From: Octopus vulgaris
Lineage: Eukaryota
DNA length: 64,000 nucleotides
Assembly: GCA_951406725.2 (NCBI GenBank)
Contig: OX597831.1
Location: 20,460,001 to 20,524,000, forward strand
Direction of reading: 5' to 3'
A program made the translations under genes and the position numbers. Below are positions 4,559-44,458 of this stretch, one piece after another; the first letter of the stretch is position 1, and each line of letters starts with the position of its first letter. The notes under the pieces were generated by a model. The model ran no database searches, had not been told where the DNA came from, and saw only the letters and a list, made by a program, of their open reading frames with translations.

Positions 4559-4590
<32 letters not shown>

Positions 4591-4632
4591 ATGGATATGA
4601 GTAAGTACCTCATTTATTTCTTTTGCCACATG

Positions 4633-4685
4633 TATCACTGACGAAGGGAGGGCTGTTAAAAGCTAACCCTGAAACCGGTCCGATA
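4633..4685 (+). ncRNA. Type I hammerhead ribozyme motif (intact core) in a (TA)n-flanked insert at about 4589-4831
   Basis: TATCA-CTGACGA-AGGG...CCCT-GAAAC-CG-GTC-CGATA; palindromic stem III ACCGGT; GUC site. Confidence 0.75.
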
Positions 4686-4851
4686 TGGTAATAATGGAAT
4701 GTTTTAGAAATTTCTGTCGACCTTTTTTCGAGTAGCGTGCATATTGTGAAAAAATAATATGGTTAATGGACAATATGTCCAATTTTTCGGCATATCTGGC
4801 ATTAGAAATTTTTTCGTTTGCCCTTAATTATGTATATATATATATATATAT

Positions 4852-5055
4852 GACCTCTGACCTCTTCCTGTCAGGTGTCCCAGATGAACCAACTTCGCAG
4901 TAGGAGGTGCAGATGAGGTCAGCTGCATCAAACTCTCTCATGCACCAAATGTCAATTGCTAAAAGGCATTCGTGAAGTAAAATTATGTAGCAACACCGAA
5001 TGGCGGTACCTCAGCATGACCACAGCTCGTGAGCTGAAACTAGATGAAATAAAAA
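4852..5055 (+). mobile_element. CR1-group LINE 3' end fragment
   Basis: DLFLSGVPDEPTSQ*EVQMRSAASNSLMHQM plus 3' tail; near-identical to 10725-10915. Confidence 0.85.
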
Positions 5056-5599: not shown

Positions 5600-6020
5600 A
5601 GTCTTCATAAAGGGAAACAAATCTCCTGCAGTGAACTACCGGCCAATTTCACTCAGCTCTCATATCATTAAAGTATTTGAGAGGGTAGTGTGATCGTGAA
5701 TAACTCACTTCCTCGAAGACAACAATCTGCTGAACCCCAACCAGCATGGTTTCTGTGATGGCAGAGACTGCCTGTCGCAGCTTCTGCACCATTTTGATGA
5801 CATCTTAAAAGCTTTGGGAGAAGGCTCCAATACTGACGTCATATAGCTTGATTTCAGCATGGCATTTGATAGAGCGGACCACAAAATCCTGCTGAAGAAA
5901 CTGTCCAACATTAGAGTCCGTGGAAAGTTGCTGCAGTGGATAAAGTGTTTCCTGACGAACAGAATCCAACATGTTGTGCTTGAGGGAATACGATCTAGCT
6001 CAGCCAAAGTCAGTAATGGT
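5600..6020 (+). mobile_element. CR1-group LINE reverse transcriptase fragment (pseudogenised)
   Basis: NYRPISLSSHIIKVFERVV..LLNPNQHGF..RDCLSQLLHHFDDIL..DVI*LDFSMAFDRADHKILLKKL..WIKCFLTNR with in-frame stops. Confidence 0.9.
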
Positions 6021-6528
6021 GAACGACGGTCACGTATGAGCAACGAGAGAGAGAGAGAGAGAGAGAGAGTAAAGGAGAAAGAGAGAGAAAGAAAGAGAGA
6101 GAAAGAGAAGAGAGAGAGAGAGACAGATAGAAAACGGTGAAGTGGAGAAAAAGAATTTGAGAAAGGATGAGAGAGAAAAAACCAAAGGAGGAGAAGGGGA
6201 GGAAAAAAACGAATTAGAGAAAGGAAGAGAGAGAGAAAAAGAAAGGGGAGAGAGAGGACAGTATAGTGTAGAGACACATCAAAATTATTAAGATAACTTT
6301 CTTGGAAATGGATGCGTGGCGTTCAATCAAATAATGATATAAATAAACAATATATGTGCATATATACATACATATATGTATATACATACATATATGTACA
6401 TACATACATATATATATATATATATGCATATATGGGTACAGGACGTCAGAAAACATAAACAACATGAAATATGAAGACAAACTCCTCTATGCGAACGAGG
6501 GAAACAAATAGGAAACAAGACAAGTAAC

Positions 6529-17907: not shown

Positions 17908-18092
17908 ATCGCTAGCCACTAAACGTTTTTTTTTTATTTTCGCTCTCTCGTTGTTTCTGTGTTCCTTTCTGCTGAAGAGCGTAGGCTCGAAACGTAAAAT
18001 ACTTTCTCACTTCCTGAGCGTTAAACTAATACATATGTTTGTTGTTTACACACCCGTCTTCATTTTTTTTTTACTTATATTTTGTAAATTCC
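17908..18092 (+). mobile_element. Family F1 element with variant hammerhead at 17966-17999
   Basis: TTT-CTGCTGA-AGAGC-GTAG-GCTC-GAAAC-GTA-AAA. Confidence 0.75.
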
Positions 18093-34567: not shown

Positions 34568-35090
34568 AAGTGAGATAGGGGTTATGAGTGTAACCCGCTA
34601 TGCGATATCAGTTATCCAATATACTGCCAGTGAAGTACCCAAAAGGCTAAAACATAAATGCTTACAATTTCAATGCAATTAGTTCATTTATTGTATTAGA
34701 TGGGCGAAGGTAAAATGTCTTACCTTGAATTCATAATACAAAGTAAGAAAATGGAGGAATAGATTCCTTTCAATCATCAACTTACAGATAATACCAATTC
34801 ATATAATTTATTAACTAATTAAATAGGTAACTCATTTTTAACTGCATATTACCCCAATTACATTTGACTAATATAGGCACAATGAGATACATTTATCTAC
34901 AGGCTGAAACAGCTGTAAGATCAATTTTATATGTATTATTTTTATGGTATTATCTTACTTATTGATGTATATTGTTTTATTCTGTTGGATTTGGATGTTC
35001 TTATTTAATTAGTTAATAAATTATATGAATTGGTACTATCTGTAAGTTGATGATTGAAAGGAATCTATACCTCCATTTTCTTATTTTGTA
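34563..35090. mobile_element. (TA)n-flanked insert with 89-bp inverted repeat and hammerhead 3' half remnant
   Basis: IR arms 34737-34825 / 35002-35090; GAAAC-AGCT-GTA at about 34907-34918. Confidence 0.6.
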
Positions 35091-35112
35091 TATATATATA
35101 TGTATATATATG

Positions 35113-35223
<111 letters not shown>

Positions 35224-35266
35224 TATTATTATATATATATATATACACACACACACAGACACATAT

Positions 35267-35641
35267 GATAAAGGTGGGTTATTCGCAATTTCCCACCGAA
35301 AGACAGAGAAATAGACGTCACTTAGGTGATTAAGGGTACTAGTTTGCATCAGCATTGCTAGAAATAAGAGTGAAATAACTCTTAGCCACTAGAAAGCATT
35401 TATCTTATGACTGACAAGGAAGGCAAGCTCCCTACAGCATCCGGGGCATAGCCAGATCACCAGTGATTTCGCATTTGATGAATGCTCATCAGTGGCTCTT
35501 ATTCGGCTGCCTAGGGGCAGGCTAGCTCGCCTTCTTCCTTAATAAGATAAGTGCTTTATCGTGGGTAAGAGATGTCTTGACACTTGTTGGTAACAATGCT
35601 GGTGCTAACTAGTTCGCTTAGTCTCATTAGTGACGTCTATA

Positions 35642-35645
<4 letters not shown>
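35267..35645 (-). mobile_element. Rod-folding retrozyme-like element
   Basis: Long imperfect self-complementarity from 35311 to 35640 with a canonical hammerhead in the central region. Confidence 0.7.
35451..35496 (-). ncRNA. Canonical type I hammerhead ribozyme
   Basis: GCCA-CTGATGA-GCATT-CATCA-AATGC-GAAA-TCA-CTGG-TGA-TC-TGGC; all three stems and the core are intact; AUC cleavage triplet. Confidence 0.88.
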
Positions 35646-35714
<69 letters not shown>

Positions 35715-35716
<2 letters not shown>

Positions 35717-35888
35717 GAGAATTCACAAAAAAAAGCAAAAGACGAAGACAGGTGGTGTAGACAACAAACAGTTGTATTAGTATAACGCTCGGGAAGGGAA
35801 AAAGTCTTTAAGGTTTCGAGCCTACGCTCTTCCACGAAACAAGGACAGAAAATAAAGAATGTGTAGTGGCTAGCGATCTATCATGGCA
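35715..35888 (-). mobile_element. Family F1 element (decayed hammerhead)
   Basis: Homologous to 34292-34482. Confidence 0.72.
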
Positions 35889-41236: not shown

Positions 41237-41995
41237 TACGAGTGTAATCCCAAAAGTAAAGTCTCTAAAAATATTTAGAAATCACAAACGTTTATTGCCA
41301 ATGATATTTACATCATTTTAAAGTTTAAACATTTATCTATTCGCCATTTCAGTGGATGCATTTTTGTTAGGCGCTGGGGTAGTTTTTGTAATGCCCACGT
41401 CATACAAGCTCACCACCATGTCGTTGAGGAAGCGTTCATCTTTCACATCGTCGTCGTTGCTGAAGGACGTTCCGGCCAAATATTCGTTAAACTAAGGGAA
41501 CAGGTGGTAGTCACTGGGTGCCAAGTTCGGACGATAAGGTGGGGTTGCCGTTTATGGTTTTCTTTGAGCATTCGTGGGATCCATCTTGCACACCTTCCGA
41601 TATTGCAATGTTTCTCCTCGTAAGACCCCTATGAATGGTGCTTCGGAAAATCTCAGGGACCAAAATGCGGAGATCACCCAGAGTGATCATACGATTTTCA
41701 CGCAAGATTTGCTCAACTTCCGCGACTGTCACGTCGGAAATTGATGGTTGCCCACTTCTTTCTTCGTAATGGATTTCAGTACGACCAGCTGCAAATTCCC
41801 AACAACACTTGCGCATGCGCAAAAAACACAACAGTGTTGCCAATAGCCACACGCACAGTTTCCCTCCGTTCTCACGCCCGAAATCCACGCCACCATCTCT
41901 TCAGTTATCCGGCCATCGGATAACTGAAGAGATGGTGACGTGGATTTCCGCCCCGACATCCGAAATTCGGAGTTTTATCATGGCTACCGGATAAT
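41237..41995 (-). mobile_element. Internally deleted mariner element
   Basis: TIR-like TACGAGTGTAATCCCAAAAGT; N-terminal FAAGRTEIHYEERSGQPS..RENRMIT fused to PPYRPNLAPSDYHLFP. Confidence 0.85.
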
Positions 41996-42074: not shown

Positions 42075-42655
42075 TTCTTTTCTACTCAAGACACAAAGCC
42101 CGAAATTTTCGACTCCAATACTTAATTTATTGACTCTGAAAGGATGAAAGGCAAAGTCGACCTCGGCGGAATTTGAACTCAGAACGTAGCGGCAGACGAA
42201 ATACCGCTAAGCATTTCGCCCGGCGTGCTAACGTTTCTTATTTCTTTATTGCTCACAAAGAGCTAGACATAGAGGGGACACACTAGAACAGACAAAGGGA
42301 TTATGTCGATTACATCGACCCCAGTGTATTACTGGTACTTAATTTGTCGACCCCGAAAGGATGAAAGGCAAAGTCGACCTCGGCGGACTTTGAACTGATA
42401 ACGTAACGGCAGACGAAATACCTATTTCTTTACTACCCACAAGGGGCTAAACATAGAGGGGACAAACAAGGACAGACAAACGTATTAAACCGATTACATC
42501 GACCCCAGTGCGTAACTGGTACGTAATTTATCGACCCCGAAAGGATGTAAGGCAAAGTCGACCTCGGCGGAATTTGAACTCAGAACGTAACGGCAAACGA
42601 AATATCGCTACGCGTTTCGCCTGGCGTGCTAACGATTCTGCCAGCTCGCCGCCTT
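42075..42655 (-). mobile_element. SINE family B, three nested or tandem copies
   Basis: Junctions AAAGAAATA|GGTATTTCG and AAAGAAATA|AGAAACGTTAG on the minus strand. Confidence 0.88.
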
Positions 42656-42661
42656 CGTAAG

Positions 42662-43170
42662 ATAAATTATTAAAGTTAGACGCAATTTCAAACAAAAAAG
42701 GCAGAAATACAATCCTCACTAAAAGTGGCTCAGGGTGCAAGTCTGCACCAGCATTGCTAGAAATAGAAGTCAAAGCAACTCTTAGCAAAGAACAGAGCAC
42801 AGGGCACTATCTATAAACTGACAAGAGTGACAACTTCCCCACAACAAGCGAGGGCGCTAGAATGGTCGCTCGATTTCGGATAGAATTAATCCGTATCGAT
42901 GCTTTTACTCCATTGCCTAGGGTTAAGCTATCTTGACTTGTCAGTTTATGGAATATACCATAGGAATCAGTGGCTGATTCTATAAAATCGTAAAGTGAAA
43001 ATTATAAATTATTAAAGTAGCCAGACGCAATTTAAAACCAAAAGCCACAAATACAATCGTCACTAAAAGTGACTAAGAGTGCAAATCTGCACCGGCATTG
43101 CTAGAAATAACCGAACATAGCCACGAACATAGCACTATCTATAGACTGAGAAGGGAGCCGAGCTACGTAC
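42662..43170. repeat. Diverged ~340-bp-period partial tandem related to the 35267-35645 element
   Basis: ATAAATTATTAAAG..CGCAATTT..TCACTAAAAGTG..TGCACC(A/G)GCATTGCTAGAAATA at 42662 and about 43003. Confidence 0.75.
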
Positions 43171-43239
43171 AGCACACGACGTGTTTTCACAGTTTTCACC
43201 TAGCCTTGTTATGTATGTTATGTATGTAGGTATTTGTCG

Positions 43240-43835
43240 GGCGACGAACTGGCAGAAACGTGAGCACGCCGGGCGAAATGCTTAGCGGTATTTCGTCTGC
43301 GTTACTTTGTGAGTTCAAATTCCGCCGAGGTCGACTTTGCCTTTCATCCTTTCGGGGTCGATAAATTAAGTACCAGTTACGCACTGGGGTCGATGTAATC
43401 GACTTAATCCGTTTGTCTGTCCTTGTTTGTCCCCTCTGCGTTTAGCCCCTTGTGGGTAGTAAAGAAATAGGTATTTCGTCTGCGTTACGTTGTGAGTTCA
43501 AATTCCGCCGAGGTCGACTTTGCCTTTCATCCTTTCGGGGTCGATAAATTAAGTACCAGTTACGCACTGGGGTCGATGTAATCGACTTAATACCTATGTC
43601 TGTCCTTGTTTGTCCCCTCTGTGTTTAGCCCCTTGTGGGTAATAAAGAAATAGGTATTTCGTCTGCGTTACGTTGTGAGTTCAAATTCCGCCGAGGTCGA
43701 CTTTGCCTTTCATCCTTTCGGGGTCGATAAATTAAGTACCAGTTACGCACTGGGGTCGATGTAATCGACTTAATACCTATGTCTGTCCTTGTTTGTCCCC
43801 TCTGTGTTTAGCCCCTTGTGGGTAATAAAGAAATA
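43240..43835 (+). mobile_element. SINE family B, head plus three tandem 183-bp bodies
   Basis: GGTATT at 43287, 43470, 43653 and 43836; TSD-like TAGGTATT(T/C)GTCGG at 43227 and 43834. Confidence 0.92.
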
Positions 43836-44458
43836 GGTATTCGTCGGCCAGTGGCTTTACTAAAGGAAACGTGCCTCAGATGTCTCGTAGTGAGACTGAA
43901 CTCGAGACCACGTTGTTTGCAAAGCGAACTTCCTAAACGTACAGCCACGCCCTACGCTCAAATGAAAAAATATACAGACACACAGAGATACATAGTGTAT
44001 CAGCGGTACATCATCGCGAAACAGAAAGTGAAACAAGAACGAAAGCAGCAGCAGCAGTTGTAGCAACAATAAACAGTAAAAAATAATACAATACGAAACG
44101 TTTTTGAGAACTATCAAAAGTAAACGCATATATTTGTTTAATATTCTTCTACAGTTCTTTCGTATATTTTTTCCTTCTCTTTTCTTCTTTCTTTCTTTCA
44201 TTCTTGCCTTCTTTTTTTTTTTACACATCGTGTTTGTTTCTTTCCCTCATTCTTTCCTACTTCTTTCTTGCCATATTCTTCGGCATCTTATATCTTTAAT
44301 TATTTCTTTGTTTTTATTTCTTTCACAATTGCGACCATGTTTTGTGTTTCGTTTACCCCACCTCTGCTATTTATCTCCCCTTTCTTCTTCATTACTTCAT
44401 ATAATTTTTCTTCTCAATCTCTTATTTCTATAGCCTTTCTTTCTCTCTTTCCTTCTTA

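Follow-up and report, generated by a model that had tools for sequence, protein, structure and literature searches.

A hammerhead-bearing rod in the Octopus vulgaris genome is very probably an old copy of a non-LTR retrozyme, with a Penelope-like element as its likely mobiliser

Metazoan non-LTR retrozymes are non-coding tandem repeats with units within 150-450 bp, one canonical type I hammerhead in each, a GC content below 50% and no LTRs, found in genomes that also hold Penelope-like elements (PLEs). The described repeats measure 350-390 bp in mussel, 330/350 bp in axolotl and 220-245 bp in coral, and dimeric cleavage has been described (Cervera and de la Pena 2020, PMC7229834). PLE insertions are 5′-truncated partial tandems, often with an inverted 5′-truncated copy at the 5′ end, and are biased towards microsatellites (Craig et al. 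2021, PMC8557442). In vitro, a PLE protein cuts and extends both target strands and can start copying from within the RNA template (Frangieh et al. 2024, PMC11167929). The retrozymes of Xenopus have been argued to be non-autonomous PLE derivatives, with cleavage in one of nine elements tested (bioRxiv 10.64898/2026.07.22.740005). The enzyme that mobilises animal retrozymes has so far been argued from such co-occurrence and from homology with pseudo-LTRs (pLTRs). Another group to be compared comprises hammerhead viroids, viroid-like RNAs and HDV-like circles (PMC7936874), which one octopus locus resembles in its rod fold and its hammerhead.

This locus lies in a stretch of 64,000 nucleotides from Octopus vulgaris (hereafter the window), which is gene-free and repeat-rich and belongs to a genome of 2.8 Gb; it occupies positions 35267-35645. 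The locus is very probably a decayed non-LTR retrozyme copy whose rod consists of the copy and an inverted second piece, likely formed by a Penelope-like enzyme at insertion (Table 1). The main copy is shorter than one 336-nt unit; its RNA sense is the minus strand, and its 3′ end adjoins the left microsatellite. The inverted piece is attached to it 5′-to-5′, forms the outer rod, and has its own 3′ end against the right microsatellite. In a check for target-site duplication, the two ends were found to sit in microsatellites of different repeat units. About 8 nt of the junction match neither piece well, and the rod appears seamless because the joint falls within the inverted homology from which the family hairpin rises. 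No reading frame of at least 120 aa lies over the element, and no frame with reverse transcriptase (RT) plus GIY-YIG was found in the element or anywhere in the 64-kb window.

Table 1. Features of the retrozyme locus and of its relative in the window.
Feature	Position	Strand	Basis
Core of canonical type I hammerhead (cut predicted at 35455/35454)	35451..35496	-	sequence; weak Rfam HH9 match; covariation across subfamilies
Main 5′-truncated copy of 336-nt retrozyme unit, unit ~4-287	35265..35547	-	BLAST 89% to family majority; nhmmer 35547-35265, E 4.5e-87
Inverted second piece of retrozyme unit, unit 143-247	35542..35646	+	88% to family majority, opposite strand
Family's own long stem I hairpin, unit 4-148, hammerhead-capped (inner rod)	35403..35547	-	circular fold of family majority
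Inversion junction	35530..35547	.	junction sequence; inside ~17-nt inverted homology (unit 4-21 and 132-148) of family hairpin
(TA)n/(CA)n microsatellite at main copy 3′ end, likely target	35089..35264	.	TRF; flank table
(TC)n(TA)n microsatellite at inverted piece 3′ end, likely target	35644..35714	.	TRF; flank table
Sister-subfamily partial tandem, ~1.5 units	42662..43181	-	nhmmer 42949-42676, E 4.2e-39; 43181-43026, E 1.6e-23

The initial annotation had presented the locus as a viroid-like rod of about 330 nt. The rod fold itself is strong on both strands: region 35267-35645 forms a single long rod at -141 kcal/mol on the minus strand (z -10.1) and at -163.2 kcal/mol on the plus strand (z -11.3), equalled by 0 of 100 shuffles in each case, and as a circle it folds with 1 hairpin loop (z -9.6). 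The helices quoted in that annotation are all present where it had placed them. Of the five, only GAAGGC/GCCTTC belongs to the family hairpin; the other four pair the copy with the inverted second piece. The window rod is a copy plus an inverted second unit piece, likely a by-product of insertion, and not the structure of the family RNA.

The hammerhead at the rod's tip lies on the minus strand and is canonical, with a genuine stem III and its predicted cut site exactly where annotated. Its elements, in minus-strand order, are CUGAUGA (35492-35486), a 5-bp stem II, GAAA (35470-35467) and AUC (35457-35455); stem III has 4 bp, including the A15.1-U16.1 pair, and is capped by a tetraloop. The core and 12 stem pairs are intact in the window copy, as in 6 of 38 copies, but it lacks two G-C pairs next to the internal loop of stem I. 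Rfam at gathering score gave 0 matches in the window. Its E-value mode gave only weak hammerhead matches (HH9 at 35451-35496, E 0.07; RAGATH-1, E 1.1) together with microsatellite noise, and other ribozyme classes were found in the window in neither mode. Fold energies, computed without Mg or tertiary terms, place the hammerhead fold of the window copy a predicted 5.8 kcal/mol above its minimum-energy fold (P ~1e-5) and that of the family majority 0.2 kcal/mol above the minimum (P 0.06).

Each unit of the family has one CUGANGA, and in the genomic copies collected, stems I-III covary between subfamilies, a comparison that the initial annotation had suggested. Alignment A1 retained 51 of 69 fragments (30/43 + 21/26), the gappier ones being dropped; over 21 named pairs, 86.4% of its cells are paired, versus 32-39% with slid partners. 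Stem II is swapped between C-G (27 copies) and G-C (17), and stem III shows the two-sided swaps A-U/G-C and C-G/U-A/G-C. These two-sided changes represent a few subfamily events, not 44 independent ones, and the shuffle control ignores relatedness; the third stem I pair, misaligned by MAFFT between subfamilies, was omitted from the count. Conservation and covariation thus indicate a ribozyme that is real at the family level, its cleavage being predicted. In sister subfamilies stem III forms a palindrome, and in the subfamily of the window copy it comes close to one, so that dimeric cleavage is possible beside monomeric cleavage. A third subfamily variant, seen at L178, L180 and L184, combines a stem II (G-G-A-U-U) in which every position pairs with a stem III that is palindromic.

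The family was assembled from genome searches in which the best 40 candidates per search were scored. A search with the region gave 97 matches (best 40 of 1142 first-look candidates scored). Among the top matches, most span query 2-281 on one strand, with query 276-379 aligning to them on the other; L003, the only long exception that aligns on the same strand, carries an inversion of its own. Where the window copy has its right arm, other copies run on into a linker and the next unit. Collapsing 78 loci to 50 distinct ones and iterating gave the 336-nt unit, with a GC content of 42%; the window copy is L001 in this set (window plus offset). Continuation into another unit on the same strand was seen at 32 of 79 loci, with up to 3 units at L042, so that arrays are short, mostly below 2 units and at most 3 among the loci seen. 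The mapped loci have no LTR layout. Exact motif searches of the whole genome hit 18, 15 and 22 places, the last being intact-core matches, with 0 for the controls.

The copies are diverged. Fragments longer than 150 nt (65 in number) are 75-93% alike to the family majority, with a mean of 86.4%, and CpG columns are changed in 26% of cells versus 11.5% elsewhere. No other copy exceeds 90% over at least 100 nt among the best-scored candidates of two genome searches. The family is therefore old, with no young burst among the scored copies. The whole catalytic core is kept in 14 of 38 copies, and the core columns are slightly less changed than the others (30/380 vs 1465/12776, p 0.03), which could reflect search bias or weak constraint. 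The diverged partial tandem that the initial annotation had noted at 42662 is indeed a relative: it shows 74% and 70% local matches and an internal direct repeat with a spacing of ~342 nt. It belongs to an older sister subfamily, its hammerhead core is decayed, and it has no inversion.

The earlier view of the family as non-coding, retrotransposed and retrozyme-like is upheld by the lack of a frame of at least 120 aa, the 336-nt head-to-tail units and the conserved hammerhead. Judged by sequence, the family matches the metazoan non-LTR retrozymes, sharing with those described the unit size, the single canonical type I hammerhead, the low GC content and the presence of PLEs in the same genome, and its mapped loci show no LTR layout. 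It differs from them in being a sequence family of its own, in its short and old arrays (75-93%) and in being known here from genomic sequence. The 5′ inversions and microsatellite targeting of the octopus copies are not described in the sections covered of PMC7229834, a paper in which the word 'inverted' occurs 0 times. No published account of the family, of cephalopod retrozymes or of retrozyme inversions was found; supplements and Repbase/Dfam, which lay outside the search, may hold the family.

Inversions recur in the family. An adjacent inverted piece was found at 13 of 50 loci and at 5 of 11 further loci, or 18/61. An independent nhmmer count of 79 loci, sister subfamily included, gave 16 pieces joined 5′-5′ and 0 joined 3′-3′, the sister subfamily contributing inversions at 6 of its 29 loci. 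Loci selected by motif, and thus blindly with respect to inversion, were inverted in 6/18 and 5/11 cases. Six other inverted loci fold with z from -4 to -28 and four non-inverted controls with z from -0.4 to -4.8 (simple dinucleotide-block shuffle, 30 shuffles). At L075 the junction lies in the same hairpin homology as in the window copy, around a central hammerhead; such junctions number 2 of 13 (L001 and L075), too few for a hotspot.

Of 83 outer 3′ ends, 59 adjoin microsatellite-like sequence, versus 12 of 47 outer 5′ ends (p 6e-7); clusters split by gaps above 60 nt may add a few internal ends to these counts. Random flank positions fall on such sequence in 372 of 2440 cases (15%). The 3′ ends are variable, with 34 of the 83 lying within unit 280-299 and another 31 within 200-259, and often carry a few letters matching the target repeat. 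In one retrozyme copy (L077, ~1397) the 3′ end meets a TTAGGG-like tract and not a dinucleotide microsatellite.

This anatomy is shared with EN+ PLEs and their non-autonomous Chlamys derivatives, e.g. MRC1 (PMC8557442, PMC11167929): 5′ truncation, partial tandems, a type I hammerhead, an inverted 5′-truncated copy near the 5′ end, microsatellite targets and variable internal 3′ ends. Unlike PLEs, as far as these sources describe them, the retrozyme has no reading frame, its hammerhead is canonical and not minimal, and it has no sequence link to the PLE copies tested. The initial annotation's statement that the rod is distinct from Penelope-type motifs thus holds for the size of the ribozyme but not for the insertion anatomy, which is that of Penelope-like elements.

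From the anatomy and from the known class, the following course of events is the most likely. Tandem copies would be transcribed and cut themselves at each hammerhead into 336-nt monomers, which would be ligated into circles, and multimeric or circular RNA would serve as template. A Penelope-type GIY-YIG/RT protein would cleave a (TA)n/(TC)n target on both strands, each of which would prime one cDNA at a different unit site, at ~287 and ~247 in the case of the window locus. The two cDNAs would then join head-to-head, in the window copy through the inverted homology where the family hairpin begins, a joint that would extend the hairpin into a seamless rod, and the arms would mutate neutrally thereafter. 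With a single hammerhead, the window locus could only be cut into two halves, and no circle would result.

The strongest competitor of priming on both target strands accepts the retrozyme and places the origin of its inversion elsewhere, in cDNA snap-back on the hairpin, in LINE twin priming or in a later DNA rearrangement. Such an origin is unlikely, though snap-back may apply to the window locus, where the inverted piece falls wholly within the unit range of the main piece and the junction sits at the hairpin homology. L1-type twin priming, too, produces 5′ inversions. However, both outer ends of inverted loci are RNA-sense 3′ ends on microsatellites, with such sequence on both sides at 8 of 18 loci and on at least one side at 17 of 18, and no poly(A) tails were found at the 3′ ends in the flank table. 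At L003, L066 and L144 neither arm is contained in the other; two separately primed cDNAs are therefore needed there, and a single cDNA folding back on itself is impossible. A later rearrangement would not yield the polarity of 16:0. A literature search on twin priming with Penelope found nothing relevant.

The genome holds intact 781-aa frames with RT and GIY-YIG, the GIY-YIG domain scoring above the cut-off and RVT_1 (E 1e-6) just below it. Intact-looking frames of this kind, with RT, a Cys-rich linker plus GIY-YIG at the C-terminus, were seen at many loci, including L139 (1245-3590) and L140. Past the frame, the L139/L140 region holds repeats of 55-90 nt in tandem, in which CCAAT-like and TGACGTC motifs occur; a pattern search found no canonical hammerhead beside the frame. 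Comparison of the retrozyme unit with the ends of 30 GIY-YIG loci (out of 148 matches; 1.5-kb flanks; BLAST and nhmmer) and with two extended loci gave no significant shared sequence. The single nhmmer match of the unit among the GIY-YIG loci, at L130, lies on the opposite strand and 1.4 kb from the endonuclease.

These searches bear on a further alternative, in which the units are solo pLTRs left by a 5′-truncated autonomous PLE and not a stand-alone retrozyme. It would account for an insertion anatomy identical to that of PLEs, and Xenopus retrozymes do resemble pLTRs (bioRxiv 10.64898/2026.07.22.740005). It is nevertheless quite improbable for the octopus family, in which longer copies extend upstream into another unit (up to 3 at L042). 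A tblastn search of 25 endonuclease frames against 108 locus records matched only 4 distinct loci (L007 = L043, L067, L105 and L107), in no fixed place, and found no ends shared between retrozyme loci and endonuclease frames. The hammerheads reported for PLE pLTRs are minimal, in contrast to the canonical ones here (PMC7229834). The octopus data therefore share with the Xenopus study, as far as its text was available, the proposed partnership of retrozymes and PLEs, but they approach it differently: that case is built on co-occurrence and pLTR homology, mostly in vertebrates, and this one on insertion anatomy in an invertebrate-type genome, with pLTR homology not found in the 30 GIY-YIG loci and the two extended ones (bioRxiv 10.64898/2026.07.22.740005).

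Less probable still is the reading put forward at the outset, in which the rod would represent the RNA of a novel family of viroid-like, rod-shaped, self-cleaving circles. In its favour are the very stable single rod on both strands, the intact hammerhead at its tip and the similar junction of L075 around a central hammerhead. The right arm, however, is absent from other copies on the same strand, and no other locus spans the window junction (best 40 of 87 candidates scored); L075 has other ends and folds with 5 loops (z -4.4). Over the 105 columns common to both arms, each arm has 12 private changes, 1 column differs in both, and 0 changes are shared: the two arms have decayed independently, with no compensation. 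A single hammerhead cannot excise a monomer, for which two cuts are needed, and the window locus would therefore release neither monomer nor circle.

The fold of the unit points the same way. The majority unit, folded as a circle, is branched, with 9 hairpin loops (z -3.5), and pairs unit 4-148 inward as the long hammerhead-capped hairpin, with probabilities mostly of 0.8-1.0. Circles of four natural periods are branched as well (z -0.4 to -1.8), and hairpin loops number 4-9 across the unit folds. The unit-length circle is thus predicted to be branched and not a rod. No CUGANGA core was found on the antisense strand of the window element or of the unit. Hammerhead viroids carry ribozymes on both polarities. 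Compared with viroid-like RNAs and HDV-like circles, as treated in the parts of PMC7936874 consulted, the octopus family has a monomer predicted to be branched, is genome-encoded and bears a type I ribozyme on one polarity only. With a junction unique among the scored candidates, the independent arm decay and the branched unit circle, the claim of a viroid-like rod of ~330 nt as the family RNA is largely refuted.

Sequencing runs were also compared with the locus. In three runs presumed to be RNA, 16, 15 and 6 contig records were family-like, mostly less than 90% alike, none spanning and none with a back-joint; the comparison, made for four runs with 35262-35646 at 80% likeness in contigs only, bears neither for nor against circles. 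At that likeness, and in contigs only, cover was absent at 35522-35534 in all four runs. The natural unit L002 was matched by 3 sequencing runs of unrecorded kind and three organism codes; none is on record as RNA, and these matches do not bear on expression.

An aged MITE, which the long imperfect inverted repeat at the window locus might suggest and which had been named as the alternative to a rod RNA, can be dismissed: 43 of 61 loci are without inversion, the ends of the inverted arms vary between loci, no terminal inverted repeats are shared across the family, the unit is tandem, and the hammerhead is conserved and covaries.

Other repeats of the window also carry hammerhead-like motifs or lie beside the copies described. 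The (TA)n tract to the right of the locus is also met, from its far side, by the end of another repeat (35715-35860, minus strand), which bears a minimal hammerhead-like motif in decayed form. CUGANGA cores are present in its relatives at 17972 (+), 30163 (-) and 46187 (+), and further copies lie at ~34264 and ~37223, and all of these are likely minimal PLE-type hammerhead repeats. Palindromic, head-to-head segments containing CUGAAGA occupy 41880-41990 (41904 minus, 41924 plus), beside a 129-aa frame (41511-41900) with a resemblance to part of a mariner-type transposase. Tandem repeats of 183-184 nt, in opposite orientations, flank the sister copy (42662-43181) at 42239-42604 and 43287-43845; their unit is similar to a common SINE-like repeat. 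A hammerhead-like motif at 4638 (+) lies in a repeat (4589-4856) that matches an inverted pair in L120 and is possibly another ribozyme repeat with 5′ inversions. The opposite strand of a minus-strand frame at 5705-6322 resembles a decayed fragment of a LINE reverse transcriptase.

For scans of other genomes, the locus carries a caution, as matches that combine a rod with a hammerhead can be by-products of insertion where PLEs abound. A more speculative extension, to which only a slim chance is given, is that hairpin-mediated head-to-head priming recurrently converts branched retrozymes into seamless rods with an intact hammerhead at the tip, as at the window locus and L075. If such rods were transcribed and circularised with the aid of a second ribozyme or a host ligase, insertion of the Penelope type would offer retrozymes in the genome a natural path towards viroid-like rod RNAs. 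For the octopus family itself, the copies carry a Penelope signature: inversions that are only 5′-to-5′, 3′ ends on microsatellites and arms needing two separately primed cDNAs. This signature fits the both-strand cutting and extension reported for the PLE protein in vitro (PMC11167929), and the insertion anatomy, as read from the genomic copies, speaks for the mobilisation of animal retrozymes by Penelope machinery that primes on both strands of the target.
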